From an uncultured Dehalococcoidia bacterium (GTDB lineage Bacteria; Chloroflexota; Dehalococcoidia; DSTF01; JACRBR01): a stretch of 64,000 nt of DNA. Position numbers and translations under genes: made by a program. Of the stretch, positions 5,261-35,339 are shown one piece after another; the first letter of the stretch is position 1, and each line of letters begins with the position of its first letter. Location: contig CAYQZE010000018.1 of assembly GCA_964421985.1 (NCBI GenBank), positions 583 to 64,582 on the forward strand, written 5' to 3'. The notes beneath the pieces are model-generated. The model made no database searches, was not told the origin of the DNA, and worked only from the letters and a program-made list of their open reading frames with translations.

Positions 5261-5761
5261 CTATTCGACGGGGCTGGCTGCCTCGATCGGGCGCGTTTCC
5301 AGCGAGTCAAGCGCGATGCGGACGTTCTTGCCGAACAGCTGCAACTGATCGTCCAGGCGGCGCAGCATCTCGGTGGCGTAGCGGTCGGCTTCGTCCATCT
5401 GTTCGTTCGCCAGCTTCTCGGCCTCGCCCATGCGCGCGCGCGCCTGGTTCTCTGTGTCGAGCAGCATGTGGTCGCAGCGTGCTTCTGCCTCGCGCACCAG
5501 CATGTCGGCGCGCGCCTCGGCAGCCTTCACGACGGATTCGTTCGAAAGGATATCGTCGGCCTGCTCCTCCGCGCGGCGCAGCTTTATCTTCGACTCTTCC
5601 TCCGCGCGCTCGATCATCTCGTCGCGGCGGCGGAGAATGTCCTCCGCCTCCCTGATCTCCGTCGGCATCGCGGCGCGCATCTGGTCGACCAGGTCCAGCA
5701 GACGCCGGCGGTCGACGACGACGCCCGCGCCGATCGGCATGCGCCGGCCCTCGGCGACCAT
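5261..5761 (-). CDS. hypothetical coiled-coil protein (charged E/R/A-rich heptad-like sequence)
   Basis: 166-aa ORF, highly charged coiled-coil-like composition. It lies downstream of coaD-rsmD in the same orientation. No confident family assignment. Confidence 0.5.
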   Translation of the reverse strand: MVAEGRRMPIGAGVVVDRRRLLDLVDQMRAAMPTEIREAEDILRRRDEMIERAEEESKIKLRRAEEQADDILSNESVVKAAEARADMLVREAEARCDHMLLDTENQARARMGEAEKLANEQMDEADRYATEMLRRLDDQLQLFGKNVRIALDSLETRPIEAASPVE

Positions 5762-6875: not shown

Positions 6876-6913
6876 CGCGCGCGAGTCGTCGGTCGAGAGT
6901 CGTTGGTCGTGGG

Positions 6914-6960
6914 GATTGAACCACAGAGACACAGAGCCACAGAGATGCCTTGTTGGGTTA
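6914..6960. repeat. TTGAACC + CACAGAG x3 element (period 8), copy 1, 30-40 nt upstream of the rsmD start
   Basis: gattgaaccACAGAGacACAGAGccACAGAGatgccttgttgg. About 55 bp is shared with two copies at 28323-28378 and 28552-28608. Confidence 0.7.
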
Positions 6961-7044: not shown

Positions 7045-8718
7045 TCACGGAGGGGTTGTCGCTCCCGGCGCGACATCCAATGAGACAAGCTGCCCTGCCC
7101 GGACGACGCCGTCGCTGACGATCAGCGTGACGGTGTAGGTGCCTTCGTTGGCGGGGGCCGTCCAGGTGACGGCGTCGCCGGTTTGCGGTGTGATGGTGCC
7201 GCTGGCGGTTGACCACGCCGGCGTCAGAAGCTCGCCGTTCGGACGTGATAGTGTGAGGCTGCCCGTGTCAGCCGCCTGTTGCACGGGCGCCCACACATCG
7301 GCTCCACCGCCCTGGGTCGAGACGTCATTGATGGTGACGCCACCGAGGCCGCGCCGCTGCGCCAGGTCCAGCCGGAAGGCCGCGCTGAAGGCGTTGGCAA
7401 CCCAGACCGTGCGCGTGCCGCCACGGCCGGGATACTTGAATGTGACGGAGCGCGCTCCATCGTCCCACGTGAGCCCGCTGGCATTCTCGCTCGCTGCCAG
7501 GTTCTGGGCGACCAACTGCACCTTCGACGACGGCGTCAGATCGCCGGCCGTCTTCACGCTGACTATGCTGGCGCGGCCGAGCGCGTCGTCGAGCGAGAGT
7601 GTGCGAAGGCCGTCGCCGCCCCGTTCGACGCTGAGCGAGCTGATACTGATCAGCACCTTCGTGCGGTCGACTTTGTCGATGATGTAGTCGAGCGCTGCCT
7701 CGGTGTTCTGGAAGTACAGTTCCTGATCCAGCCCCCCGGCCAGCTCGAGCGTATCGGCCGACGTACCGAGTTGCTGCCAGTCGTAGGCGCCGGACTGCAC
7801 GGTGCCGCCTTCCTTCGCGGGCATGGGCAGCGTCAGCGTGAGCGTGCGGCCGTCCGCGTGGAGGGCCTTGGCGACAAGCGCGATGAGGCTCGTGAACTGG
7901 ACGCGCAGCGTGGGGTTGACGCTGCGGTAATCGATGTCGATGCCGGCGAAGTTGCCTTGCTTCACCGCATCGGCGATCGCGGCGGCGTGTTTGGCCTGGA
8001 GGTCTGTGGAACGCAAGATGCTATCAACGACTTCGGGCGCCGGGGCGACGATCGCCGGGACGACCTTGTAGCCCGCGGGCGGGACGGCGGGCGGCTGCCC
8101 GACGATCGTGCCATCGCCGACGGGGATGAACACGATGGGATGGAGCGTCGTAATGACCGCTTCGGCGCGCTTGTCCAGAGTAGCGCCGGCGGACATCGAC
8201 CCGGCCACCTGCAGCGTCGCCTTGCTGCGACGAAGCACGACGACGTTGCCAGGCAGCGCGCCGACGTCGCCACGCACCGCCTCGCCGCTCGCGACGAGCG
8301 TCGCGTCCGAGAGCCGCTGCCACTTGCCATCGATGTAGGTGTACAGCGCGAGGCTCCGCTGCTCGGTCTGCTTTTCGCGCAGCGGCACGGTGATCTTGGC
8401 GGCTCCGCGCTGATCCTGCGGCGCCGCCAGGTCGAATAGCGCAGAGGCCGCGACCAGTCCCGCCGGCAACTTCGGCATGCCGCTGCGGACGGTCGACGTA
8501 TAGGCGTCTGCGTCGCCCGGGCCGCTGGGGATGCCGCCGGTCCCTCCTCCACGACTGAGAATCGAGACCGGGGGCAGCAGCAGCACGAGCAGCAGGATTG
8601 CAAGCCCGACGATCGCGCCGGCGACGTAGATGGCGGCACGGTCGGGCCCGGGCGGTTCGGGGCCGTCGGGTTTCGTCTTCAGGATGCGGTCGAAGGGTCC
8701 GCGTGGTTGCGTCGTCAT
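7045..8718 (-). CDS. membrane-anchored protein with a GH18-like (chitinase-like, probably non-catalytic) domain
   Basis: N-terminal TM helix (AIYVAGAIVGLAILLLVLLL). Central motif FAGIDIDYR resembles the GH18 DxxDxDxE region but lacks the catalytic Glu. Confidence 0.5.
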   Translation of the reverse strand: MTTQPRGPFDRILKTKPDGPEPPGPDRAAIYVAGAIVGLAILLLVLLLPPVSILSRGGGTGGIPSGPGDADAYTSTVRSGMPKLPAGLVAASALFDLAAPQDQRGAAKITVPLREKQTEQRSLALYTYIDGKWQRLSDATLVASGEAVRGDVGALPGNVVVLRRSKATLQVAGSMSAGATLDKRAEAVITTLHPIVFIPVGDGTIVGQPPAVPPAGYKVVPAIVAPAPEVVDSILRSTDLQAKHAAAIADAVKQGNFAGIDIDYRSVNPTLRVQFTSLIALVAKALHADGRTLTLTLPMPAKEGGTVQSGAYDWQQLGTSADTLELAGGLDQELYFQNTEAALDYIIDKVDRTKVLISISSLSVERGGDGLRTLSLDDALGRASIVSVKTAGDLTPSSKVQLVAQNLAASENASGLTWDDGARSVTFKYPGRGGTRTVWVANAFSAAFRLDLAQRRGLGGVTINDVSTQGGGADVWAPVQQAADTGSLTLSRPNGELLTPAWSTASGTITPQTGDAVTWTAPANEGTYTVTLIVSDGVVRAGQLVSLDVAPGATTPP

Positions 8719-8953
8719 CAGCTTCCGCCGCGCTCGCGAGGAGCGCGATCGGGTGTACCTCCATCAAGTCTCTTGCGCTGGCGGCTCGCGGGTCAGGTAC
8801 GGCCGCTGCGGAAGTGTGGCTACCGCGCGGTCGAAGATCAACATGCGCCCCTTGGAAGGCCGCCGCGCCCCTTCAGCCGGCACCAGGAGCCGACGATCCT
8901 CATGGGCAGAACGGTGGCCATGCCGGCGGCGCATGGCGCGGCGGCCGAGGGGT

Positions 8954-8982
8954 TTGGAAGCACTTTACAGGGGTGCGATCTC
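8954..8982 (+). promoter_or_regulatory. sigma70-like promoter for greA (TTTACA, 17-nt spacer, TATATT)
   Basis: -35 TTTACA at 8954-8959 and -10 TATATT at 8977-8982. About 110-nt leader to the greA ATG. Confidence 0.5.
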
Positions 8983-8994
8983 GCGGGTATATTG

Positions 8995-9025
8995 GCCGCG
9001 TCGCGACTGGGGCCCACCCGCCTCA
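8995..9025 (+). terminator. intrinsic-terminator-like hairpin plus T-tract inside the greA leader (possible attenuator / GraL-like small RNA)
   Basis: Stem ACTGGGG/CCTCAGT (7 bp, one G-U) with an 8-nt loop, followed by TTCTTTTGTT. Confidence 0.4.
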
Positions 9026-9098
9026 GTTCTTTTGTTCACGATCGCCACGAATGCCGGCCGAAGAATCGGCGCAACAGGGGAACCGAGGGGATGTTGCC

Positions 9099-9569
9099 AT
9101 GGTGGAGAAGCAGCAACCGATCACAAAGGCCGGCCTGAAGAAGTTCGAGAAGGAACTCGCGCGTCTGGAGAGCGTGGGCCGGCGTGAAGTGGCCGACAAG
9201 ATCCACCAGGCCCACGAGCTGGCCAGCACGCAGAACAACGCCGAATACGAAGACGCCAAGAACGAACAGGCGATGGTCGAGGGCCGCATCGCCCAGCTCC
9301 ACAGCCTGATCACCAACGCGACCATCATCGACGAGGCCGGCGCTCACAAATCCAAGCTTGTGACCCTGGGCAGTCATGTGAAGGTGCGTAGCGAGGGGAA
9401 GTCGCAGGAATACACCATCGTCGGACCCGCCGAAACGGACCCGAGCGAGGGGAAGATCAGCAACGAATCACCCGTGGGCCGCGCGCTGATCGGCAAGAAG
9501 CTGCACGACGAAGTGCAGGTGAGCGTGCCCAGGGGCATCATCACCATGAAGATCACGAAGATCAGTTAA
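9099..9569 (+). CDS. greA: transcription elongation factor GreA
   Basis: 157 aa, MVEKQQPITKAGLKKFEKELARLE...GKISNESPVGRALIGKK. GAGGGG ribosome-binding site 8 nt upstream of ATG 9099. Confidence 0.9.
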   Translation: MVEKQQPITKAGLKKFEKELARLESVGRREVADKIHQAHELASTQNNAEYEDAKNEQAMVEGRIAQLHSLITNATIIDEAGAHKSKLVTLGSHVKVRSEGKSQEYTIVGPAETDPSEGKISNESPVGRALIGKKLHDEVQVSVPRGIITMKITKIS

Positions 9570-9572
9570 CGG

Positions 9573-9593
9573 GTCGCCGGTCGCCGGTCGTCG
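9573..9593. repeat. tandem heptad triplet GTCGCCG-GTCGCCG-GTCGTCG directly after the greA stop
   Basis: Direct read of the sequence. It abuts the REP element at 9593. Confidence 0.7.
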
Positions 9594-19755: not shown

Positions 19756-19771
19756 AAACATGAACGAGCGT

Positions 19772-19793
19772 GTAGCGCGGACTTCAGTCCGCG
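19772..19793 (+). repeat. REP element type 2 (GTAG + cgcggac/gtccgcg hairpin)
   Basis: GTAGCGCGGACTTCAGTCCGCG. An inverted degenerate copy of the palindrome core lies at 19815-19830. Confidence 0.55.
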
Positions 19794-19892
19794 TGAGGTG
19801 GGAAGCGGCGAACGCGCAGACTGAAGTCCACGCCACAGAATCGCCGAACAGACGACTGACGGCCGACGACCAATTCGAGAGAGGATCAACCG

Positions 19893-21074
19893 ATGAACTT
19901 TGCTGACAGCGCGGAAGAGGCGACGTTTCGGCAGGAGGTGCGCGACTTCGTCAACGCCGAGATCAAGTCCGACTTGAAGACCGGCGATCTGGTGGAGTCG
20001 GGCATGTATCGCGGCGCCTTCGAGCGCCTGAAGGGCGTGCGCGGCAAGCTCGCGAAGCGCGGCTGGATCGCCCCGGCGTGGCCGAAGGAGTACGGCGGTG
20101 CCAGTCTCTCCGTGATGCAGCAGTTCATCATGAACGAGGAGTTCGCCGAAAGCCGTGTGCCGCCCGTCGGCGGCATGGGCGTCTCGATGGTCGGACCGAC
20201 GATCATCACCCACGGCAACGAGGACCAGCGGAAGGAGCACCTGAGCCGCATCCTCTCGGGTGACGTGCAGTGGTGCCAGGGCTTCAGCGAGCCCGGATCG
20301 GGCTCCGACCTCGCGTCGCTGCAGACACGCGCGGTGAAGGACGGCGACGACTACGTGATCAACGGTCAGAAGATCTGGACATCCGGCGCTTCCTACGCGC
20401 ACTGGATGTTCATGATGGCGAGGACCGACCCTGATGCGCCGAAGCACAAGGGCATCAGCTACTTCCTCGTCGACATGAAGTCGCCTGGCGTCGAGGTGCG
20501 GCCGCTGACGAACCTCGCGAATCAGAACATGTTCAATGAGGTGTTCTTCCAGGACGTGCGCGTGCCGGCGAAGAACATCGTTGGCGAGGTGAACCGCGGT
20601 TGGTACGTCGGCACCACGACGCTCGACTTCGAGCGATCGAGCATCGGCAGCGCCGTCGGCCTCAAGCTGCAGCTCGATGAACTGGTGAAGTACGCGAAGC
20701 AAAACGAGAAGACAGGCAGCAGCCGCACCGGCTATCTCTCGTCAGTCAAGTCGGAGCTCGCCGACCGCTACGTCGAAGCGACCGTCGCGAAAATGATGTC
20801 CTATCGCGTCGTCACGATGCAGGCCAAGGGCCTGATCCCCAACCATGAAGCATCGATGACCAAACTCTTCGCTTCGGAGTTGACGCAGCGCATCGCGCGC
20901 ACGGGCGTGAAGGTGCTGGGTCTGTACGGGCAGCTCTACGGCGAAGGCGCACCGATGCGTGGCCGTTACGAGAGCTCGTACATGACGTCCCTCGCATCGA
21001 CGATCGCCGGCGGCACCAGCGAGATCCAGCGAAACATCATCGCGACCAGAGGGCTCGGACTACCGCGGGACTGA
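19893..21074 (+). CDS. acyl-CoA dehydrogenase, paralog 2
   Basis: 393 aa with the same motif set as paralog 1. Confidence 0.9.
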   Translation: MNFADSAEEATFRQEVRDFVNAEIKSDLKTGDLVESGMYRGAFERLKGVRGKLAKRGWIAPAWPKEYGGASLSVMQQFIMNEEFAESRVPPVGGMGVSMVGPTIITHGNEDQRKEHLSRILSGDVQWCQGFSEPGSGSDLASLQTRAVKDGDDYVINGQKIWTSGASYAHWMFMMARTDPDAPKHKGISYFLVDMKSPGVEVRPLTNLANQNMFNEVFFQDVRVPAKNIVGEVNRGWYVGTTTLDFERSSIGSAVGLKLQLDELVKYAKQNEKTGSSRTGYLSSVKSELADRYVEATVAKMMSYRVVTMQAKGLIPNHEASMTKLFASELTQRIARTGVKVLGLYGQLYGEGAPMRGRYESSYMTSLASTIAGGTSEIQRNIIATRGLGLPRD

Positions 21075-21088
21075 CGAGATGGTCGCCT

Positions 21089-21116
21089 GGTGAGTAGTGA
21101 CTAGTGATTGGTGGGT
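21089..21116. repeat. heptad array GGTGAGT-AGTGACT-AGTGATT-GGTGGGT; left terminal inverted repeat of four-helix-bundle cassette 1
   Basis: Four tandem 7-mers with consensus RGTGAYT. Inverted relative to the array at 21499-21526. Confidence 0.6.
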
Positions 21117-21127
21117 TGTCCCATCGC

Positions 21128-21451
21128 ATGGAGAAGGGATACGAGGATCTAGAGGTGTACCGCCGCGGACTCGCCTTGCAGCGACCGGTTCATGCGCTCG
21201 TCCTCCGATTTCCCGACTATGAGAAATACGACCTCGCGAGCCAAATGCGCCGGGCATGCAAGTCGATTCCGACCAATATTGTCGAGGGCTACGCGCGACG
21301 GCGATCTCCAAAGGAATTTTGCAGCTATCTCGCGCTGTCCGTAGGCTCAGCCAACGAGATGGAAGTACATTTCAAGATTGCGAAGGAGCTCGACTACATC
21401 AACGAAGCGGAGTTCGCACACTTCATCGAGGAATATCAGATCATCGGCTAA
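21128..21451 (+). CDS. four-helix-bundle protein (TIGR02436 / 23S rRNA intervening-sequence protein family), probably C-terminally truncated
   Basis: MEKGYEDLEVYRRGLAL...DLASQMRRACKSIPTNIVEGYARRR...SANEMEVHFKIA. TAA at 21449; in-frame continuation (QLTRLIQYWRT) is homologous to the C-terminus of the paralog at 23982-24389. Confidence 0.7.
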   Translation: MEKGYEDLEVYRRGLALQRPVHALVLRFPDYEKYDLASQMRRACKSIPTNIVEGYARRRSPKEFCSYLALSVGSANEMEVHFKIAKELDYINEAEFAHFIEEYQIIG

Positions 21452-21498
21452 CAACTAACGCGGCTTATCCAGTACTGGCGGACAAAAGGCGACGAGTC

Positions 21499-21526
21499 GG
21501 TCACCAGTCACCAATCACCAATCACG
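21499..21526. repeat. heptad array GGTCACC-AGTCACC-AATCACC-AATCACG; right terminal inverted repeat of cassette 1
   Basis: Reverse complement reads CGTGATT-GGTGATT-GGTGACT-GGTGACC. Followed by GAGGAGACCAGACG and the ATG of ACAD paralog 3. Confidence 0.6.
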
Positions 21527-21539
21527 AGGAGACCAGACG

Positions 21540-22721
21540 ATGGACTTTAAGGACACGCCGACCGAAGCAGCATTTCGCAACGACGTGCGCACGTTCATTC
21601 AGGCCGAGGCGCCGAAGCGGAAGCTGGGCCAATCGGTCGAGGAAGCGATGGTGTCCGGCTGGCAGGCGAACCAGGAGTGGTTCCACAAGCTGGGCAGGAA
21701 GGGCTGGATCGCCCCGGCCTGGCCGAAGGAGTACGGCGGCGCCAGCATGACCACCGTCGAGCAGTTCATCTTCAACGAGGAGATGGCGCTCAACAAGGCG
21801 CCGCGCCCCCTGCACCAGATCATCGGGCTGGGCATGGCCGGCCCGACGCTCATCGTCCACGGCACAGAGGAGCAGCGGAAGAAGTACCTTCCGGGCATGT
21901 TGACCGGCGACGACGTCTGGTGCCAGGGCTACAGCGAGCCGGGCGCAGGCTCCGACCTCGCATCCTTGCAGACCCGCGCCGTGCGCGAAGGCGACGACTA
22001 CGTCGTGAACGGCCAGAAGATCTGGACGACGCTGGCGCACATCGCCCGCTACATGATCCTGCTCACGCGCACCGATCCGGATGCGCCGAAGCATCGCGGC
22101 ATCACGTACTTCATCCTCGATATGAAGTCGCCCGGCGTCGAAGTGCGGCCGCTCTACAACCTCGGCAACAGTCACGAGTTCAACGAGGTGTTCTTCGACA
22201 ACGTGCGCATCCCGAAGGACAACGTCATCGGCGAGGAGAACCGCGGCTGGTACTCCGCCGTCACCACGCTCGACTTCGAGCGCTCCAGCATCGGCAGCGC
22301 GACGGGCATGAAGCAGCACGTCGAAGAGCTGATCGACTACGCGACAGAGCACGCAGGCGACCCCACGAGCACGCTCCGGACGAACCCGATGCTGCGCTAC
22401 GAGCTTGCGGACCGCATGGTCGAGACCGAGGTCGCACGGATGCTGTCGTATCGCGTGGCCTCGATGCAAGCGCGCGGGCTGATCCCGAACTACGAGGCGT
22501 CGTCGCTGAAACTGTTCTCGACGGAGCTGAACCAGCGCATCGCGAAGTCGGCGATCCATATCCTGGGGCTCTACGGTCAACTGCGCGGCGACAGCGCGCC
22601 GACGAAGGGCCGCTGGCTCGGCCTGTTCTTGCGCTCGGCGGCGTATCCCCTCGAAGGCGGCACGTCCGAGATCCAGCGCAACATCCTCGCCCAGCGCGGC
22701 CTCGGCCTCCCGCGAGACTAA
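21540..22721 (+). CDS. acyl-CoA dehydrogenase, paralog 3
   Basis: 393 aa. MDFKDTPTEAAFRNDVRTFI...GWIAPAWPKEYGGAS...GGTSEIQRNILAQRGLGLPRD. Confidence 0.9.
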   Translation: MDFKDTPTEAAFRNDVRTFIQAEAPKRKLGQSVEEAMVSGWQANQEWFHKLGRKGWIAPAWPKEYGGASMTTVEQFIFNEEMALNKAPRPLHQIIGLGMAGPTLIVHGTEEQRKKYLPGMLTGDDVWCQGYSEPGAGSDLASLQTRAVREGDDYVVNGQKIWTTLAHIARYMILLTRTDPDAPKHRGITYFILDMKSPGVEVRPLYNLGNSHEFNEVFFDNVRIPKDNVIGEENRGWYSAVTTLDFERSSIGSATGMKQHVEELIDYATEHAGDPTSTLRTNPMLRYELADRMVETEVARMLSYRVASMQARGLIPNYEASSLKLFSTELNQRIAKSAIHILGLYGQLRGDSAPTKGRWLGLFLRSAAYPLEGGTSEIQRNILAQRGLGLPRD

Positions 22722-22749
22722 CGCCCGTGCCGGTGGATGGGAGTCCACG

Positions 22750-23931: not shown

Positions 23932-23942
23932 TGGTGGCCGAG

Positions 23943-23963
23943 AGGTCAGAAGTCAGAGGTCGG
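23943..23963. repeat. heptad triplet AGGTCAG-AAGTCAG-AGGTCGG; left terminal inverted repeat of four-helix-bundle cassette 2
   Basis: Matches 18 of 21 positions of the reverse complement of the triplet at 24347-24367. Confidence 0.6.
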
Positions 23964-23981
23964 AATGTGACAAGCACGAGC

Positions 23982-24389
23982 GTGATCAAAAGCTTTCGTG
24001 ACCTTCAGGTGTACCAGCGCGGTATGTCGTTGCTGAAGCCGGTGCATGAGCTGACGCGCACGCTGCCAGACTACGAGAAGTACGATCTTGCGAATCAACT
24101 TCGTCGCGCCTGCAAGTCAGTGCCCGCGAACATCGCGGAAGGTTACGCGAAGCGGCGCTCAGCGAAGGAGTTTCGCGCCTACCTGACCAACGCGATGGGC
24201 TCCGCGACCGAGATGGAAGTGCATCTGGAAATCGCACGCGAACTGGAATACATTTCGATCGAAGAGGCCGCGCAGCTAATCGACCAGTACCAGATCCTGG
24301 CGAGACAGCTGTACCGGCTCATCGAGAAGTGGCGCACGCTCGAGATCCGACCTCCGACTTCCGATCTCTCAGCCACCGGAACGGATTGA
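23982..24389 (+). CDS. four-helix-bundle protein (TIGR02436 / 23S-IVS protein family), full-length paralog
   Basis: GTG start gives IKSFRDLQVYQRGMSLL..., aligning with MEKGYEDLEVYRRG of paralog 1. C-terminus QILARQLYRLIEKWRT. TGA overlaps the ATG of ACAD5 (TGATG). Alternative in-frame starts at 23931 and 23967. Confidence 0.7.
   Translation: MIKSFRDLQVYQRGMSLLKPVHELTRTLPDYEKYDLANQLRRACKSVPANIAEGYAKRRSAKEFRAYLTNAMGSATEMEVHLEIARELEYISIEEAAQLIDQYQILARQLYRLIEKWRTLEIRPPTSDLSATGTD
24347..24367. repeat. heptad triplet CCGACCT-CCGACTT-CCGATCT within the 3' end of four-helix-bundle gene 2; right terminal inverted repeat of cassette 2
   Basis: Reverse complement reads AGATCGG-AAGTCGG-AGGTCGG. The 7-nt periodicity is out of codon phase, so this is a DNA-level repeat. 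Confidence 0.6.
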
Positions 24390-25570
24390 TGGACTTCCGA
24401 GATTCTCCCGAAGACGCAGCATTCCGGCAAGAAGTACGCGACTTCCTGCGTGATGAGCTGCCGCACGACCTGCGGGCCGCCGATGACGCGATCCTGGGCG
24501 TGGGCATCGGCGAGGATGAGCGCGAGCGCGACTGGCTGCGGACGCTGGCAAAGCGCGGCTGGGTCGCGCCGGCGTGGCCGAAGGCCTACGGCGGCGCCGG
24601 TCTCTCCGTGATGCAACAGTTCGTCTTCAACGAAGAGATGGCACGCGCCGCGGCGCCGCGGCCGAACTGCCTCGCGATCGGCCTCGCAGGGCCGACGATC
24701 ATCGTGCACGGGACCGAGGAGCAGAAGCGCGAGCACCTCTCGGGCATCCTCTCCGGCGAACAGTTCTGGTGCCAGGGATTCAGCGAGCCGGGGTCGGGAT
24801 CGGACCTGGCGTCGCTGCAGACGCGCGCCGTGGAGGATGGTGACGACTACATCATCAACGGCCAGAAGATCTGGACGTCAGGCGCGCACCGCTCGCAGCG
24901 GATGATGCTGCTGGCGCGCACGGACCCGGACGTACCGAAGCACAAGGGCATCAGCTACTTCCTCCTGAACATGAAGTCGCCGGGCATCACGGTGCGGCCG
25001 CTGACGAACATCGCGGACACGCCGAGCTTCAACGAAGTGTTCTTCGACAACGTACGCGTGCCGAAGAGCGACCTGCTGGGCGAGTTGCACCGCGGCTGGT
25101 ACGTGGCGACGACCACGCTCGATTTCGAGCGCTCGGGCATCATCAATGGCGTTTCCCTGCAGCGGCTCGTGCATGAACTCGCTGCGTTCGTCCGCGATCG
25201 CGATCGCGTGCGGGATGACCCCGGCCTGGAAACCGTCCGACACGAGCTGGCGGACCGGGCGATCGAGGCACGGATCTCTATCGTGCTGTCCTACAGAGTG
25301 GCGACGATGCAAGCGAAGGGCATCGTGCCCAACCAGGAGGCATCGATCACCAAGTTGTTCGGATCTGAGCTGGCGCAGCGCATCGCGCGCACCGGTGTTA
25401 AGCTCAGCGGCCTCTACGGACAGCTGCGGGCGGGGTCGGCGCGCGCGCCGTTGGGCGGGCGGCTGGACGCGATGTATCGCATCGCGGTCGGCTCGACCCT
25501 GGCGGGCGGCACGTCGGAGATCCAGCGCGGCGTGATCGCGCAGCGCGGGCTGGGGATGCCGCGGGGATGA
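24389..25570 (+). CDS. acyl-CoA dehydrogenase, paralog 5
   Basis: 394 aa. MDFRDSPEDAAFRQEVRDFL...GWVAPAWPKAYGGAG...GGTSEIQRGVIAQRGLGMPRG. Confidence 0.9.
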   Translation: MDFRDSPEDAAFRQEVRDFLRDELPHDLRAADDAILGVGIGEDERERDWLRTLAKRGWVAPAWPKAYGGAGLSVMQQFVFNEEMARAAAPRPNCLAIGLAGPTIIVHGTEEQKREHLSGILSGEQFWCQGFSEPGSGSDLASLQTRAVEDGDDYIINGQKIWTSGAHRSQRMMLLARTDPDVPKHKGISYFLLNMKSPGITVRPLTNIADTPSFNEVFFDNVRVPKSDLLGELHRGWYVATTTLDFERSGIINGVSLQRLVHELAAFVRDRDRVRDDPGLETVRHELADRAIEARISIVLSYRVATMQAKGIVPNQEASITKLFGSELAQRIARTGVKLSGLYGQLRAGSARAPLGGRLDAMYRIAVGSTLAGGTSEIQRGVIAQRGLGMPRG

Positions 25571-25664
25571 GGCTGGAAGTGGAAGCAGGAAACGGGATGC
25601 GAGAAGCGAGATGCGCGAACCGAAAGCGATCACGAATCGTGCTGTGCGAGCGGGCGGGTCATCG

Positions 25665-27342: not shown

Positions 27343-28314
27343 CTAACCGCCCATCTCGGCTTCTACATCGTGCACGCTCACGGATCCCGGTGCGGCGCCG
27401 TCGCGCGCCATGCGCGATGCGATCGCCTGCAGCGCGGCGTTCGCGCGCGTGGCGACGCCGTGCAGCCTGCCCAGCAGGGCGATCTCGCCGTTGAGGTAGT
27501 CGGTCTCGATGCTGCCGGTCTTGCGGGCGAGGCTCTGCCACGACGACCCGCCGGCGCGGGCATGCCCCGCGATCTCGCGCATCGGCGACATCGGCCTGCG
27601 CCGCTCGTTCATCTCGTCGTCCGACGCCCAATCGATGCCGGCGGCGCGATAGCAGGCGATCGCTTCGTCGCGCAGGCGGGCGTGGAGTGCGCGCGTGTTG
27701 CCGCCGAGGCCGCATGAAGCCTGGACGGCGTTGCCGAGGTTCGAGAGCAGCTTGGCGTACTTCCAGCGCATGATATCGGCCGTCGGATGCGCGCTGATGC
27801 CCGACGCGTCGAGGTCCGCGGTGACGCGTGCGATCAGCGCGTCGCTGCCCGACGGATAGCAACCCGCATCGAGCACGCCGCTGACGGGTGCGCAGTGTGC
27901 TTGCACACGCCCGGGATCGAGATGCGTCGCGGGCAGCAGGACGAGCATCCCGTAGACGTTGGCGAACCGCCGCGCCGCCAAACGCTCGTTCTCGACGCCG
28001 TTCTGGGCGCAGACGACGGGCACGTGCGGTCCGGCCGTGGTGTGGAGGTCGGCGAGCGCGGCGGCCGTGTGCTGCGTCTTCATCGTCATCAGCACGACGT
28101 CATCCCCGGTGAACCGCAGCTCGGACGGATGGGCGACGGCGCTGATGCGCAGCGTCGTGCTCGTATCCGGCGTCTCGAGTGTCAGGCCGTGGCCGCGAAT
28201 GGCATCGAGGTGCCGCCCGCGCGCGATCAGCACGACGTCGTGCCCTTGCTGGAAGAGCCGCCCGCCGATGACGCCTCCGACGGCGCCGGCACCGTAGATG
28301 ATGTAGCGCGTCAT
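27343..28314 (-). CDS. 2-dehydropantoate 2-reductase (ApbA/PanE) family protein
   Basis: MTRYIIYGAGAVGGVIGGRLFQQGHDVVLIARG Rossmann N-terminus. The start is set at the MTRY methionine inside the longer ORF. Confidence 0.8.
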   Translation of the reverse strand: MTRYIIYGAGAVGGVIGGRLFQQGHDVVLIARGRHLDAIRGHGLTLETPDTSTTLRISAVAHPSELRFTGDDVVLMTMKTQHTAAALADLHTTAGPHVPVVCAQNGVENERLAARRFANVYGMLVLLPATHLDPGRVQAHCAPVSGVLDAGCYPSGSDALIARVTADLDASGISAHPTADIMRWKYAKLLSNLGNAVQASCGLGGNTRALHARLRDEAIACYRAAGIDWASDDEMNERRRPMSPMREIAGHARAGGSSWQSLARKTGSIETDYLNGEIALLGRLHGVATRANAALQAIASRMARDGAAPGSVSVHDVEAEMGG

Positions 28315-28722
28315 GCTTGATTTTGAACCACAGAGGCACAGAGGCACAGAGGCTTTGGATGATGGTGGATGGTGGAGATCAACGGGGCGGGCAAGAGCGA
28401 TTGGAACGGCCGCCCGAGCGCGAACGGCCTCTCTTCTCGTCTGCGCACCCGGATTGCCGGAGAGGTCTATGTATTCGAACGCACGGCGTACAGCCGATGA
28501 CGCCTCCGACGGCGCCGGCACCGTAGATGATGTAGCGCGTCATGCTTGATTTTGAACCACAGAGGCACAGAGGCACAGAGGTTTTGGTGGGTGGTGGATG
28601 GTGGAGACCAACGGGGCGGGCAAGAGCGATTGGGAACGGCCGCCCGAGCGGGAACGGCCTCTTTTCTCATCTGCGCGCCCGGATTGCCGGAGAGGTCTAT
28701 GTATTCGAACGTACGGCGTACA
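28264..28722. repeat. tandem duplication of a 229-bp unit (copies 28264-28492 and 28493-28722, about 95% identical)
   Basis: The unit spans the first ~17 codons of the panE-like gene, the intergenic CACAGAGG x3 element and the last ~13 codons of the hydrolase-cyclase gene. The junction sits at a shared gccg microhomology. It generates the pseudo-ORFs MTRYIIYGAGAVGGVIG... and ...QRLYAVRSNT. Confidence 0.85.
28323..28378. repeat. TTGAACC + CACAGAGG x3 element, copy 2 (8 nt upstream of the panE-like start on the minus strand)
   Basis: ttttgaaccACAGAGGCACAGAGGCACAGAGGctttggatgatggtgg. Copy 3 at 28552-28608 lies inside the duplicated unit. Confidence 0.75.
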
Positions 28723-30043
28723 GCCGCTGCGGCTCCTCGATGCCTTTGAGCGCATGCTCGCCACGATCGTCGAACGCGACGCCGGCCGACGTACGCCCGA
28801 GCGAGCGCACGACATCGGATACCAAGGTCTCGCCCGGCGCGGATGCGCTCGCAACGCGCGCGGCGATGTTCACGGCGCCGCCGTGGACGTCCTGCCCGTC
28901 GCGGATCACGTCGCCGGCGTGGATGCCGACGTGCAGTTGCAGATCGAGTCCGGCTGCCGCTTCGTGGCACCGCAGGGCACCCGCGATGGCGTCCTTCGCC
29001 GCATCGAACACCGCCATCACGCCATCGCCCAGCACGCGGCCTTCGACGACGCGCCCGCCGGCCGCCGCCAGCGCTTCGCGCACGCCGCGATGCAGCGCAT
29101 CGGATCGCCCGTGAAACGCCGCATCACCGATGCGCTCCGTGATCGCCGTCGAATCGACGATATCGGCGAAGAGGATGATGGCGGTGCCAACCGTGGCCGT
29201 GGGCGTCGCTTCAGTCATTTCGTGGTCCGCCGACGGCTCGCGGCCAAGCACGAACCGGGTGACGGCCCCGGCATCCTCGCGCCAGCCGAGCGCGGTATTC
29301 ATCGTCATCAGTCGTGCCCCGGCGACTCCGGCGACGACGACGCGTGCGAACTCGTTTCCGAGGCCGGAATACTGCTGGATCAGCGTAGGCGCTTGCACCC
29401 GCGCCAGCATCGGCGTGACGTCCTGCTCGCGTAGCGCCGCCAGGTAGCGCCGCAGCGTCGCTGGAGTAGTGGCTGAGCGCATGAGGCGGGCGAGCGCCGG
29501 CGCATCATCGCCACTCGCGTTCGCGGCTGTGAGCGCCGTTGCGTGCGTCAGCGTGTACAGCTCCCACTTCTCATCACCCATGGCCCGGAACGACTCCAGT
29601 CCTTGCATGGTTGGTAGGCGCCGATACCATTCGGCGCCGTTCACAAACGGGGTCGTGAGGATGAGGTGCGTCAGCCGCGTGGGATATTGAGCCGCGTAGG
29701 CGATACACGCGGGCGTGGCGAACACCATGCCCCACAACGCGAACCGTTCGAGCTGGAGGTGCTCACGCAGTGCCTCGAGGTCGGCGACCTGGCTTTCGAT
29801 CGAGAAATCTTCGACGTCACGGTCGGACATGCCCATGCCGCGCATGTTGTAGCGGACGAGATGGAAGCTGTCGCCGACGAGTTGGAGCGACGGCTCTCGC
29901 CACTCCATCTCCCATTGCAGGTCGAGGTGCGCCCAGATGTTGGACGAGAAGACGAGCGGCACACCTTCGCCCATATCGGTATAGGCGATGTGCGTGCCGT
30001 CAGCGCTGCGCACATACTGGACCTGCGGTTGCATGATCGGCAT
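28697..30043 (-). CDS. alpha/beta-hydrolase domain fused to a class III adenylate/guanylate cyclase domain
   Basis: 448 aa. N-terminal alpha/beta-hydrolase fold (HLVRYNMRGMGMSD...ALWGMVFATPACI). C-terminal cyclase motifs ILFADIVDSTAIT...VGIHAGDVIRDGQDVHGGAVNIAARV. Confidence 0.8.
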   Translation of the reverse strand: MPIMQPQVQYVRSADGTHIAYTDMGEGVPLVFSSNIWAHLDLQWEMEWREPSLQLVGDSFHLVRYNMRGMGMSDRDVEDFSIESQVADLEALREHLQLERFALWGMVFATPACIAYAAQYPTRLTHLILTTPFVNGAEWYRRLPTMQGLESFRAMGDEKWELYTLTHATALTAANASGDDAPALARLMRSATTPATLRRYLAALREQDVTPMLARVQAPTLIQQYSGLGNEFARVVVAGVAGARLMTMNTALGWREDAGAVTRFVLGREPSADHEMTEATPTATVGTAIILFADIVDSTAITERIGDAAFHGRSDALHRGVREALAAAGGRVVEGRVLGDGVMAVFDAAKDAIAGALRCHEAAAGLDLQLHVGIHAGDVIRDGQDVHGGAVNIAARVASASAPGETLVSDVVRSLGRTSAGVAFDDRGEHALKGIEEPQRLYAVRSNT

Positions 30044-31825: not shown

Positions 31826-33033
31826 CCACGGAGACCCGCGTCGATCTGTACAGCCCCAGCACGTACCAGCAGTCGATGCCGCACGAGGCGTTTACGGCGC
31901 TGCGCGGGGAACAGCCGGTCGTCTGGCAGCCGGAGCCGGACGGCACCGGCTACTGGGCCTTTACGCGTTACGAGGATATCGTGACCATTTCGTCGGATAA
32001 CTCGCTGTTCTCATCCGGGCGCGGCGGCACGAACATCGAAGATCAACCGGAGGAGGCGATGGCGCTGCTTCGGACGATCCTGATCAATATGGACCCGCCG
32101 AAGCACACGAAGTATCGCAGGCTGGTGGCCACCGGCTTTACACCGAAGATCGTCGCGCAGACCGAGCCTCACGTGCGGGAGATCACGAAGCGCATCGTCG
32201 ATAGCGTCGCGGCGAAGGGGTCGTGCGACTTCGTGACGGAGGTCGCGGCGAAGCTCCCGCTGGCGGTGATCTGCGAGATGCTGGGCGTACCCGAGGAGGA
32301 CCACGGTAAGGTGTTCGACTGGAGCAACCGGTTGATCGGCTTCGATGACCCCGAGTACCACACGTCGCCGGAAGACGGCCGCGTGGCCGCTACGGAAATG
32401 TTCCTGTACGCGCACGGGCTCGCGGCGGAGCGCAAGGCGCGACCGAAGGCCGACATCATCAGCATTCTGATGGGTGCTGAAGTGGAAGGCGACGTGTTGA
32501 ACGAGGCGGACTTCGACGGGTTCTTCATCCTCCTGTCGGTCGCCGGCAATGAGACGACGCGCAACCTCATCTCCGGCGCCATGCTGGCGTTGATCGAGCA
32601 TCCGGAACAGCGCGCCCGGCTGATAGCCGACCCGGCGCTGATGACGACGGCGGTCGAGGAGTTTCTGCGCTGGGTTTCGCCCCTGATCTACTTCCGCCGC
32701 ACGCTTGCTCGCGATGTGGTGGTGGGTGGACAGCAGCTGCGTGAAGGCGACAAGGTCGCCATGTACTACCCCTCCGGCAACAGGGACGAAGCGATCTTCG
32801 AGGGCGGGCAGGTCTTCGATGTCGCGCGCAGCCCGAACCCGCACATGGCGTTCGGTGGCGGCGGCCCGCACTTCTGCCTCGGCGGGAGCCTGGCGCGCCT
32901 GGAGATTCGCTGCATGTTCCAGGAGCTGCTGACGCGCTTGCCCGACATCGAATTGAACGGCCCGGTGCAGCGGCTGCGGTCGAACTTCATCAACGGCATC
33001 AAGCACATGCCGGTGCGGTTCACCGCTGCCTAG
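31822..33033 (+). CDS. cytochrome P450
   Basis: 403 aa. I-helix AGNETT, EEFLRW, heme-binding loop FGGGGPHFCLG. Confidence 0.9.
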   Translation: MTTETRVDLYSPSTYQQSMPHEAFTALRGEQPVVWQPEPDGTGYWAFTRYEDIVTISSDNSLFSSGRGGTNIEDQPEEAMALLRTILINMDPPKHTKYRRLVATGFTPKIVAQTEPHVREITKRIVDSVAAKGSCDFVTEVAAKLPLAVICEMLGVPEEDHGKVFDWSNRLIGFDDPEYHTSPEDGRVAATEMFLYAHGLAAERKARPKADIISILMGAEVEGDVLNEADFDGFFILLSVAGNETTRNLISGAMLALIEHPEQRARLIADPALMTTAVEEFLRWVSPLIYFRRTLARDVVVGGQQLREGDKVAMYYPSGNRDEAIFEGGQVFDVARSPNPHMAFGGGGPHFCLGGSLARLEIRCMFQELLTRLPDIELNGPVQRLRSNFINGIKHMPVRFTAA

Positions 33034-33156
33034 CAGGGCGACGCAGATGCACCACGGATCTTAACCCGGGATAACCCGGCGTTAACGCACGGGCAGTACA
33101 GTGGAGACGCGCAAGAGCGAAACCAATCGGCAGCGAAGCATGCCGGGTGGTCGGGA

Positions 33157-33206
33157 GGCCGGACGAGGCGGGGCGTCCGGCCTCTCTCCGTGTATTCACG
33201 GAGAGA
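33157..33206. terminator. two adjacent perfect hairpins (9-bp stem ggccggacg/cgtccggcc; 10-bp stem tctctccgtg/cacggagaga) between the convergent P450 and flavin-reductase genes
   Basis: Read directly from the sequence. Confidence 0.5.
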
Positions 33207-33256
33207 CGACCGTCCATCCTCTACCACCCATCGTCCATGGTCGCTACAAGCCGCCG

Positions 33257-33937
33257 TTAGCCCCGGCGCTTGCGGTCTTCTTCTTCCGCCGCGCGCACGC
33301 GCCTCTCCGCCGACTCCTCCTCGCTGACGACCTCCGCAGCGCCGGCCTCGACATCGCGCTTGATGTCCGCGGGTTGCGGGATGCGCGCCTCCAGCACGTC
33401 GCCGAGGATGGCGTAGCGGTTGATCCCCAGGTAGTGCAGCGGACGCTCCTCCGGGTCGGCGAGCAACCACGTCTCGTCGAACGCGTCCTTCTCCGCCTGC
33501 ACGGCGGACACCTTGCCGACGAACAGCGTGTGGTCGCCGATCCGGTAGGCATCCTCGACGCCGCACTCAATCCATCCGACGCAGCCCTCCAGCAGCGGCG
33601 CATCGACGCGCCGCGCCCGAAACGTCGGGAGCTTCGTCAGCTCCAGCTTGCTCAGCTCGGCGCCGGTGACGCTGCCGAGGTACTGCACGTGGTGCAGCAG
33701 CTCGCGCGTCGGAATATTCAGCGCGAACTCCTCGCTGTACTTGATCATGTCGTGCGTGTGGCGGGCCGGATGCACCGCCACGCCGATCAGCGGCGGGTCG
33801 ATGCTGAGCGGCGTGACGAAGGCGGCCGGCATGACGTTCTGCGCGCCGTGCCACGCCGTCGTAATCAGCGCCACGGGCGAGCCGCCGAGCAGCCGCCGGG
33901 CATCGTGTTCGTCGATCGTGTGTCGCATCGCGACCAT
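33257..33937 (-). CDS. flavin reductase-like (FMN-binding split-barrel) domain protein with an acidic C-terminal tail
   Basis: LLGGSPVALITTAWHGAQNVMPAAF...IGVAVHPARHTHDMI resembles the flavin-reductase domain. Start uncertain (33937 or 33964). Confidence 0.65.
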   Translation of the reverse strand: MVAMRHTIDEHDARRLLGGSPVALITTAWHGAQNVMPAAFVTPLSIDPPLIGVAVHPARHTHDMIKYSEEFALNIPTRELLHHVQYLGSVTGAELSKLELTKLPTFRARRVDAPLLEGCVGWIECGVEDAYRIGDHTLFVGKVSAVQAEKDAFDETWLLADPEERPLHYLGINRYAILGDVLEARIPQPADIKRDVEAGAAEVVSEEESAERRVRAAEEEDRKRRG

Positions 33938-33994
33938 CGTACGCGAACGGCGGGCGGCGGTCACGGCCAGCGCCGAACGGATCGCACATCACCG

Positions 33995-34110
33995 TCCGGA
34001 GGTGCGGCTGCTGACGAATCTGGCGAATCAGACGGGGCTTATCCGGTGCTGGCGAACAAGAGGCGGCGCGTAGGCCACCAATCACCAGACACCAATCACA
34101 AGGAGACCAG
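33995..34110 (+). pseudogene. 3' relic of a four-helix-bundle (TIGR02436-like) gene with its terminal heptad array, placed just 5' of larC
   Basis: About 80% nucleotide identity to 21461-21540. Translation ...LLTNLANQTGLIRCWRTRGGA* parallels the C-terminal helix of the 4HB paralogs. Followed by heptads GGCCACC-AATCACC-AGACACC-AATCACA and AAGGAGACCAGAC. Confidence 0.45.
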
Positions 34111-34154
34111 ACCGGCGCTACGGCGCGGTACGATGGTGGACGGAGGATGCGCGT

Positions 34155-35339
34155 GTGACCAAGATCGCCTACCTGGACTGCTTCGCCGGCATCAGCGGCG
34201 ACATGCTGCTCGGCGCGCTGCTCGATGCCGGGCTTAGCATCGATGCGCTCCGCGGCGAACTCGATCGCCTCGACGTCGCGGGCTGGACGCTGCGTGGCGA
34301 GCGCGTGACCCGCGCCGGTATCGCGGCGACAAAGGCGCACGTCGACCTCGCCGAATCGCCACCGCCGCACCGCAGGCTGCCCGACATCCTGGCCCTGATC
34401 GACCGCTCAACGCTGCCTGCGGCCGACAAGCAACGCGCAGCCAGCGTGTTCGAGCGGCTTGCGGTGGCTGAGGCGCGTGTGCACGGCGTCGAACGCGAGT
34501 CCATCGACTTTCACGAGGTCGGTGCGCTCGACGCGATCGTCGACATCGCCGGCTGCGTCGCCGGGCTGCGGCTGCTCGGCATCGAGCGGCTGTACTGCTC
34601 GGCGTTGCCGGCAGGCGGCGGTACGGCGCGCTCGGCGCACGGCACGCTGCCCGTGCCCGCACCGGCGACGCTCGAATTGATCGCTCTGGCGCAGGCGCCC
34701 CTCGCGGCTTCGGCCGGCGACCGGCCTGTGGAGATGGTGACGCCGACGGGCGCCGCTCTGGCGACGACGCTGGCGGTCTTCGAACGGCCGGCGATGCACG
34801 TGACCGCCGTCGGTTATGGCGCCGGCGGCCGCGACCCGGAGGGCTGGCCGAACGTGCTGCGCATCTGGCTGGGCGATGCGATCGAGCCCGCTTCGCCCGC
34901 GATGCTGCTCGTCGAGACGAACATCGACGACATGAACCCGGAGATCTATGGCTACGTGCAGGAGCGGCTGTTCGCGGCGGGGGCGGCCGACGTCTGGTTC
35001 CAGCCGATCCAGATGAAGAAGAACCGCCCCGGCGTACTGCTCTCGGTGCTCTGCGCCATCGACCGGGAAGATGCCGTCGCCGGCGTCCTGCTGCGCGAGA
35101 CGCCGACGCTGGGTGTGCGCGTCAGCGCCGTGTCGCGGCATGAGGCGCTCCGCGAGAGCTTCGACTTCGAATCGAGCCTCGGTCCCGCGGCCGTGAAGAT
35201 CAAGCGCCTGCCTGGTGAGCCAGCGCGCGTTGCGCCCGAGTACGAATCCTGCCGCCGCATCGCCGAAGCACGCGGCATGCCGCTGGCCGAGGTGTACCGC
35301 ATGATCGAGCGCGAGGCGCTGGCGCTGCTGCAGCCCTGA
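34155..35339 (+). CDS. larC: LarC-family (DUF111) nickel-pincer cofactor biosynthesis protein
   Basis: MTKIAYLDCFAGISGDMLLGALLDAG N-terminus and overall LarC/UPF0272 architecture. GTG start with GGAGG ribosome-binding site. Confidence 0.8.
   Translation: MTKIAYLDCFAGISGDMLLGALLDAGLSIDALRGELDRLDVAGWTLRGERVTRAGIAATKAHVDLAESPPPHRRLPDILALIDRSTLPAADKQRAASVFERLAVAEARVHGVERESIDFHEVGALDAIVDIAGCVAGLRLLGIERLYCSALPAGGGTARSAHGTLPVPAPATLELIALAQAPLAASAGDRPVEMVTPTGAALATTLAVFERPAMHVTAVGYGAGGRDPEGWPNVLRIWLGDAIEPASPAMLLVETNIDDMNPEIYGYVQERLFAAGAADVWFQPIQMKKNRPGVLLSVLCAIDREDAVAGVLLRETPTLGVRVSAVSRHEALRESFDFESSLGPAAVKIKRLPGEPARVAPEYESCRRIAEARGMPLAEVYRMIEREALALLQP

Follow-up and report, generated by a model that had tools for sequence, protein, structure and literature searches.

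Why does the spacer between a flavin reductase gene and larC hold a sequence that resembles the 3′ end of a four-helix-bundle gene, and does larC depend on it? The preliminary description of the 64,000-nucleotide stretch of DNA analysed here (the window) had answered that cassettes of one type had inserted, and partly decayed, ahead of at least three genes with no relation to each other, larC among them. The comparison of this locus with the rest of the window and with related genomes points to another origin. With a probability of roughly 70%, positions 33999-34112 are a non-functional fossil of 114 bp that was copied from a module of an acyl-CoA dehydrogenase operon, consisting of the gene ACAD_b and the cassette next to it. 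Throughout, ACAD_a to ACAD_e denote the acyl-CoA dehydrogenase genes of the window operon, 4HB a four-helix-bundle (PF05635/TIGR02436) gene and SD a Shine-Dalgarno sequence; compared loci and contigs are given by L numbers.

Make-up of the fragment in the flavin reductase/larC spacer

The spacer measures 226 nt between the ATG of the flavin reductase gene (33928, minus strand) and the GTG of larC (34155), and matches to PF01613 and PF01969 bear out the earlier naming of both neighbours (Table 1). Its centre reads ...GAGGTGCGGCTGCTGACGAATCTGGCGAATCAGA, then CGGGGCTTATCCGGTGCTGGCGAACAAGAGGCGGCGCGTAG, then GCCACC AATCACC AGACACC AATCACA and finally AGGAGACCAGAC; the heptads had been read correctly from the start, 34073-34112 being GGCCACC AATCACC AGACACC AATCACA AGGAGACCAGAC. 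A blastn search against the window aligned 34032-34112 with 21458-21538 without gaps (68/81 nt, 84%; E 3e-17), that is, with the last codons of the gene 4HB1, its right heptad arm and the SD terminus that lies ahead of the ATG of ACAD_c. The similarity first described between 34021-34110 and 21461-21540 is real, and its true left limit is 34032/34033 instead of 34021, identity to the 4HB1 region being at background level left of 34032.

What lies immediately to the left comes from another gene. Positions 33999-34032 are identical at 31 of 34 sites to 20493-20526 (blastn against the window, E 8e-8), in the middle of ACAD_b (nt 601-634, codons about 201-212), where the protein reads ...GVEVRPLTNLANQ... 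and the peptide EVRPLTNLANQ corresponds to EVRLLTNLANQ of the fragment. The frame 1 translation of 33960-34073, VTASAERIAHHRPEVRLLTNLANQTGLIRCWRTRGGA followed by a stop, had been held to run parallel to the C-terminal helix of the 4HB proteins; the parallel is correct for the last ~13 codons, whereas LLTNLANQ belongs to the piece shared with ACAD_b. The 4HB remnant itself (34033-34073) gives TGLIRCWRTRGGA before its stop, where the 4HB family consensus is QLTRLIQYWRSKG.

When the ACAD operon (18.5-27.3 kb) was searched against the rest of the window, exactly two matches were returned, and these are the two that form the fragment. At larC they adjoin each other, are collinear and lie on one strand, in the order and orientation that they have at the source 12.5 kb upstream, with 931 bp of the source absent between them; the whole, 33999-34112, is a composite of 114 bp. 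Homology to ACAD sequence upstream of 33999 and to ACAD_c downstream of 34112/34113 is at background level only, and no other 4HB-derived sequence was found in the spacer. The heptads are of the same unit type as those of the cassettes at the b/c junction of the window, L083, L087 and L128. On the right, the end of the copied DNA and the natural terminus of the cassette agree to within a few nt, directly ahead of the position that the next gene's ATG would occupy. At larC no start codon follows this terminus within 19 nt, and the next ATG (34132) is out of frame with larC.

It is hardly credible that the fragment is a chance resemblance or a generic repeat of 80 bp unconnected to 4HB genes. 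Two adjoining collinear matches with the E values given above argue against such a repeat, as do the 40 nt before the heptads, which are homologous to the coding sequence of the C-terminal helix of PF05635 and throughout which close 4HB homologues (identities of 90% or less) have ...IIGKQLTRLIQYWRSKG.... The similarity is accordingly not limited to heptads and a ribosome-binding site, about 40 nt of it lying in 4HB coding sequence, and the identification of the stretch as a 4HB 3′ end with a right heptad arm and an SD terminus stands. Furthermore, the exact 23-mer CACCAATCACNAGGAGACCAGAC gave 0 matches among 185,579 GTDB species representatives. What can be said for a repeat is that the 41-nt part made up of heptads and SD is found detached from 4HB genes in metagenomes, while the part from the 4HB tail is gene-derived.

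Table 1. Features of the larC spacer and of the ACAD operon in the window, with the distribution of cassettes over the operon junctions
Feature	Position	Strand	Remarks
Flavin reductase gene, divergent neighbour of larC	33257..33928, ATG 33928-33926	-	PF01613, E 1.6e-33
Native left part of the spacer	33929..33998	.	33929-33973 89% identical to L001; remainder aligns weakly with L001
ACAD_b-derived piece of the relic	33999..34032	+	source 20493-20526
4HB remnant, last ~13 codons	34033..34073	+	stop TAG 34071-34073; frame same as ACAD_b piece
Right-arm heptads of the relic, four	34073..34100	+	GGCCACC AATCACC AGACACC AATCACA
Cassette terminus AAGGAGACCAGAC with orphaned SD	34100..34112	+	12/13 identical to 21526-21538
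Native larC leader	34113..34154	+	conserved GCGCGGTACGATGGTGGACGGAGGA (34121-34147); own SD GGAGGA 34142-34147
larC, nickel-pincer cofactor nickel insertion protein, GTG start	34155..35339	+	PF01969, E 2.5e-133
Source-like segment 1, inside ACAD_b (19893-21074)	20493..20526	+	blastn match
Source-like segment 2, 4HB1 tail, right heptad arm and SD terminus	21458..21538	+	ACAD_c ATG at 21540
Cassette 1, ACAD b/c junction	21081..21534	+	left arm from GGTCGCCTGG; right arm ending AGGAGACC
Cassette 2, ACAD d/e junction	23933..24377	+	arms GGTGGCCGAGAGGTCAGAAGTCAGAGGTCGGA / TCCGACCTCCGACTTCCGATCTCTCAGCCACC
Junction a/b			cassette in L088; none in window, L087
Junction b/c			cassette in window, L083-L086, L087, L088; absent: none
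Junction c/d	22722..22749		cassette in L087, L088; window empty, 28 nt
Junction d/e			cassette in window, L088; none in L087

Parent cassettes in the acyl-CoA dehydrogenase operon

Orthologues of the TetR-ACAD_a-e operon are present in GCA_016184985.1 (L087), GCA_040960095.1 (L088) and several ENA contigs (L083-L086), and the module ACAD_b-4HB-ACAD_c, cassette included, is collinear across these genomes at 82-86% DNA identity. This collinearity of an orthologous module argues that the ACAD cassettes are old, vertically inherited residents; it speaks against recent insertions, the ACAD-associated cassettes sitting at orthologous junctions. Nor do the cassettes stand in front of unrelated genes as a single type, given that the ACAD genes are paralogues and that the heptad units of window cassettes 1 and 2 differ. 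The heptad unit is largely junction-specific, with the c/d and d/e types common to several genomes; the b/c type is one and the same in the window, L083, L087 and L128 and a different one in L088. The shared target-site motif that had been envisaged was not seen at the cassette junctions, and no direct repeats or target-site duplications were seen flanking the relic or the cassettes. A classical transposable element or MITE was considered and rejected on the grounds that there is no transposase, that the arms differ between window cassettes and between junctions, and that the copies at shared ACAD junctions are orthologous.

Each cassette consists of a 4HB ORF between two heptad arms. In cassette 1, 4HB1 runs from ATG 21128 to a premature TAA at 21449-21451 (PF05635, E 5e-28; TIGR02436, E 7.7e-25), and in cassette 2, 4HB2 occupies 23967-24389 (PF05635, E 1.4e-31; TIGR02436, E 4.3e-31). 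The TAA of 4HB1 stands where all close homologues have a conserved Lys codon (IIGKQLTRLIQYWR...), and the product would miss the last ~12 profile positions of TIGR02436, so that the donor 4HB1 is itself a pseudogene or a truncated allele. The 4HB ORFs run into the right arm, and their stop lies 0-4 nt from, or overlaps, the start codon of the next ACAD gene. The TGA of 4HB2 overlaps the ATG of ACAD_e in this way (TGATG at 24387-24391), and an overlap or a gap of no more than 4 nt is also seen at 7125-7135 of L087 and at 5399-5403, 8750-8753 and 10392-10396 of L088. Such spacing resembles the pattern of translational coupling. In intact cassettes the ATG of the next gene follows the terminus after 1-6 nt.

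In every cassette, the two arrays are reverse complements of each other. Predicted arm duplexes have energies of -42 to -67 kcal/mol and, in 8 of 9 cassettes, z scores of -3.6 to -8.6 against shuffles; the values are -49.5 kcal/mol and z -4.9 for cassette 1 and -66.9 kcal/mol and z -8.6 for cassette 2, whose complete fold has z -5.3. The minimum free energy folds of both window cassettes close through their two arms, and cognate arms pair better than most non-cognate arms. Between the b/c cassettes of the window and L088, the heptads have changed on both arms in a compensatory manner (GGTGAYT/ARTCACC versus GGGRACT/AGTCCCC). The cassette termini approximate GGTC(G/T)CCTGG...CCAGGAGACC, a consensus that places the SD of the downstream gene within the closing stem. 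On the operon transcript, the arms of a parent cassette would thus form a stem of 30-40 bp that encloses and sequesters this SD, and translation of the 4HB ORF, or cleavage of the stem by RNase III, would expose it and couple expression of the ORF with that of the next ACAD gene. If this arrangement of stem and SD is functional, it would provide a way for a selfish ORF to become harmless, or even necessary, within an operon.

Some junctions hold other sequences. At the a/b junction of L087 (3616-3716) there are four solo left-type heptads GGTGAKT and no ORF, and at that of the window (19756-19892) a 15-bp hairpin (GCGCGGACTTCAGTC/GACTGAAGTCCACGC) with CGAC-anchored heptads, again with no ORF. 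At the d/e junction of L087, where the window and L088 have a 4HB cassette, a gene of 398 aa with a DarT (PF14487) domain match occupies 8306-9502.

Copying and decay in front of larC

For each half of the relic, the highest score in a comparison that covered the 64-kb window, L083, L087, L088 and L128 was with the ACAD_b and the b/c cassette of the window itself. The ACAD_b piece scores lower against ACAD_a, c, d and e and against the ACAD_b of L083, L087 and L088, and both halves score lower against the orthologous modules of L083, L087, L088 and L128. Elsewhere in the genome there could be a donor closer still, even one in which the ACAD/4HB junction is preformed. Between the 4HB part of the relic and 4HB1, 7 of 8 codon differences are non-synonymous, and the relic has an internal stop, the TAG at 34071. 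Polarisation of the substitutions with L083 assigned 8 to the relic, 6 of which are changes from AT to GC, and 4 to 4HB1. This distribution suggests that the relic has drifted since it was copied, with about twice as many lineage-specific substitutions as its source.

The age of the relic at larC was addressed with flavin-reductase/larC or larC-upstream loci (L001, L002/L003, L004, L005, L137 and L138/L139) with LarC identities of 81-89%, 89% being that of the closest relative available for comparison. The relic is absent from every one of these orthologous spacers. The LarC homologues point to a soil Dehalococcoidia/Chloroflexota MAG as the source. The N-terminus of LarC is conserved among orthologues, and the synteny of flavin reductase and larC was seen in L001, L003, L004, L005 and L138. 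Where the contig covers them, the outer ends of the spacer are conserved (33929-33973, with a match in L001 only, and 34121-34154), and its middle is hypervariable in length and content among the compared loci. The variable parts upstream of larC carry different REP-like hairpins in different genomes. A possible degraded copy of the relic in L001 was rejected, since 23 of 500 shuffles reached its alignment score with the relic region, and 375 of 500 that with the 4HB1 tail. No 4HB gene was found near larC in 82 loci with fetched flanks of up to 6 kb on each side. On these comparisons, the relic is not ancestral at larC and is specific to the source lineage. Because L001 and the window agree in the order of the genes between the ACAD cluster and larC, the origin of the relic is better described as a duplicative copy than as a rearrangement.

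In the favoured scenario of a fossil copy, a segment comprising part of ACAD_b and the cassette would have been copied duplicatively into the hypervariable spacer in the source lineage alone. Two routes are conceivable: an ectopic copy of ~1 kb with later loss of 931 bp, or a template-switch or filler repair that copied two patches. The copy would then have decayed without function. Small segmental duplications do occur in the source genome, as is seen from a tandem duplication of ~230 bp (28264-28499 and 28493-28729, 94-96% identical). The duplicated DNA takes in the 3′-terminal part of a minus-strand hydrolase/cyclase gene (28697-30043), a leader with three copies of CCTCTGTG and CCACCAT heptads (minus-strand reading) and the first ~50 nt of an ApbA/PanE-like gene (27343-28314, minus strand).

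An alternative close to the original proposal is that a complete 4HB cassette inserted alone in front of larC, as one of several independent insertions of a mobile cassette near start codons, and that the left arm and the greater part of the ORF were then lost on the spot. We regard this as unlikely, even though the relic ends exactly at the natural right terminus, cassette presence varies between genomes at the a/b, c/d and d/e junctions, and the solo left arm at the a/b junction of L087 means that cassettes are gained or lost and decay. An insertion of the cassette alone leaves the 34-nt ACAD_b piece unexplained, the source of which lies about 560 nt outside the left arm. In addition, no orthologous larC locus bears a cassette, the cassettes at shared junctions are stable and not hopping (orthologous, 82-86%), and neither a target-site duplication nor a common motif marks the junctions. 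The idea of one cassette type inserted and decayed before three genes gives way here to that of a copy of the ACAD_b-4HB1 module, as the relic carries the ACAD_b piece and both its halves match this module best.

Once in place, the copy seems to have left larC unaffected. The native leader of larC is conserved at 91-96% identity in relatives without the relic (L002/L003, L005 and L137-L139), and its SD, GGAGGA, lies 7 nt ahead of the GTG. The SD core of the relic (34102-34105) is 49 nt away from this GTG; a leader role at the larC start is at odds with this distance and with the use by larC of its own conserved GGAGGA. Within the otherwise hypervariable spacers of L002/L003, L005 and L137-L139, the motif GCGCGGTACGATGGTGG(A)CGGAGGA of the larC leader is strongly conserved, and the leader probably holds a -10-like TACGAT (34129-34134) in addition to the SD. 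No sigma-70-like promoter was found in 33850-34250, where the minus strand, but not the plus strand, has two weak hairpins of terminator type. An Rfam scan of 33000-35000 at E <= 1 gave no relevant match to any covariance model. The relic together with the leader folds no better than shuffles (z +0.86), and a search of 330 nt on each side found no partner for the right arm of the relic (z -0.7 and +0.4). Pairing of this arm in trans with the left arm of 4HB1 (-51 kcal/mol) was not considered meaningful, such pairing being expected from common descent. The relic lacks an ORF start and a left arm, its SD is not followed by a start codon, and larC has its leader and SD intact; the relic therefore appears to be idle and would do nothing for larC. 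As far as can be judged from sequence, the relic is genuine and probably inert.

Heptad leaders and likeness to known systems

The module of heptads and SD occurs as a leader before unrelated genes, detached from 4HB genes. A looser pattern, CACCARTCACNAGGAGACC, gave 46 metagenomic matches, close to what chance alone would give (~30 on a rough estimate). On about 9-10 of the metagenomic contigs, further heptads were present and a start codon followed 3-7 nt downstream, and among these contigs a 4HB gene with a partner arm was found only in L128. Heptads and SD stand 3-7 nt before starts, with neither 4HB gene nor partner arm, in L092, L101, L107, L108, L122, L130 and L133. At 917-940 of L092 and ~735-760 of L133 (minus strand), heptads with AGGAGACC form a leader ahead of a gene starting MALTLAEAAKLSNDIVLQGVIETI, the product of which we take to resemble a phage capsid-type protein; this gene context shows that the motif is not confined to ACAD operons. 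Another variant, in L093 (~2590-2640) and L124 (minus strand, ~1230-1280), is a mini-hairpin without an ORF in which left-type heptads directly face right-type ones (GAGTGATGGATGGTG-TC-CACCAATCACC); next come AGGAGACC and the beginning of a putative integrase gene (judged from its N-terminal sequence). The mini-hairpin gives the impression of a cassette of which only the two arms are left.

The window itself contains heptad arrays just upstream of starts, at 6883-6909 and 28585-28605, and short tandem arrays of heptads or octads in intergenic leaders, at 6883-6945, 9572-9590 and 25570-25630. A methyltransferase gene (PF03602, minus strand, ATG 6875), for example, has CGACCAA-type heptads and CTCTGTG octads just ahead of it. 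Heptad leaders appear to be widespread in the source genome.

These arrays bear on the idea that the heptads and AGGAGACC at larC are a functional leader under selection, acting as a C/A-rich unstructured standby or enhancer site or as a protein-binding site. The detached arrays of the seven contigs just listed and those of the window speak for it, as does the proposal that heptamer arrays of Beggiatoaceae are translational regulators (PMC4679880), and the heptad and SD part of the relic could have, or could once have had, leader activity by analogy with them. All the same, a leader function under selection is improbable at this position, where the SD of the relic is 49 nt from the GTG with no start codon behind it, where the SD and leader that are conserved in relatives without the relic are those of larC itself, where no promoter-like site was found (33850-34250), and where the relic also contains useless ACAD and 4HB coding debris.

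The right end of the relic deserves separate comment. It is rare for a random breakpoint to fall on a cassette terminus, and this coincidence hints at an end-specific process, for which reason end-specific mobilisation keeps some probability. In the most far-reaching version, which we consider a long shot, the relic would record the movement of S23p/IVS-type cassettes with a precise right terminus (...CCAGGAGACC) and a sloppy left start, whereby upstream host DNA is carried along; one-ended, rolling-circle-like or transcript-templated copying would each fit. If this were true, the detached arrays of heptads and SD would be the usual end state of cassette insertions, kept in place by the dependence of the downstream gene on the SD of the cassette, and the 30-year-old question of how IVSs originate and spread would become testable in Chloroflexota operons.

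Returning to the fossil copy, the relic matters little alone, as a lineage-specific scar that larC apparently does not need; its value is that of a pointer to a family of cassettes, pieces of which can be duplicated to other sites along with host DNA. In its own properties it resembles filler DNA, the debris of segmental duplications and solo terminal repeats, being likewise short, lineage-specific, non-coding, composed of two collinear patches and drifting neutrally. It differs from them in that one of its breakpoints coincides with a defined element terminus.

Intergenic tandem heptamer arrays are represented in cyanobacteria by the STRR heptamers. TAACTGA heptamers are found in intergenic regions beside starts in Beggiatoaceae, Cyanobacteria and Bacteroidetes, and are proposed to be translational regulators in Beggiatoaceae (PMC4679880). 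Such leaders have 2-6 G-poor heptamers within a few nt of starts, as do the heptads described here. In contrast, the unit sequences differ, the cassettes carry their arrays as inverted pairs on the two sides of a PF05635 gene, and the array of the larC relic adjoins no start codon.

The PF05635 family also includes the Avd accessory proteins of diversity-generating retroelements (PMC10053308), which have the superfamily PF05635/PF22296 in common with the 4HB genes. Neither a retroelement reverse transcriptase nor TR/VR repeats were found near the 4HB genes, the neighbours of which are ACAD, TetR and 4HB genes.

The closest likeness is to the intervening sequences (IVSs) of 23S rRNA that encode S23p, known from Coxiella burnetii, Leptospira, Brucella and Xanthomonas (PMC4990558). 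In Coxiella, the IVS has an S23p ORF and a terminal stem of 28 bp that is cut by RNase III; tandem GACAGAT heptamers lie next to the ORF, which is in reductive evolution (PMC4990558). A search of the literature found no description of S23p cassettes resident in operons. The IVS sits in a helix of 23S rRNA, in contrast to the ACAD cassettes, which sit in intercistronic spacers of an mRNA operon. Unlike the IVS, the ACAD cassettes hold the SD of the next gene in their right arm, and their ORF is apparently coupled to that gene. The larC element departs further, in that all it has is a right arm, 13 codons and, joined to them, part of a host gene. Measured against the make-up of an S23p IVS-type element, with an ORF and both arms, it has ~13 terminal codons and the right arm only; with the rest of the ORF and the left arm missing, it counts as a piece of an IVS-type element and not as a member of the class. 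In the remaining respects IVS and ACAD cassettes agree. They share the ORF family, S23p being the four-helix bundle PF05635/TIGR02436; the ends of both are complementary and pair into a long stem (of 28 bp in Coxiella and of a predicted length of about 30-40 bp in the ACAD cassettes); tandem heptamers are present in the arm of both; and their ORFs decay alike, as seen in the premature TAA of 4HB1 and in the stump at larC. In conclusion, the combination of an S23p gene with inverted arms built of heptads, known from the IVSs of 23S rRNA, is found here in the spacers of an ACAD operon of soil Chloroflexota.
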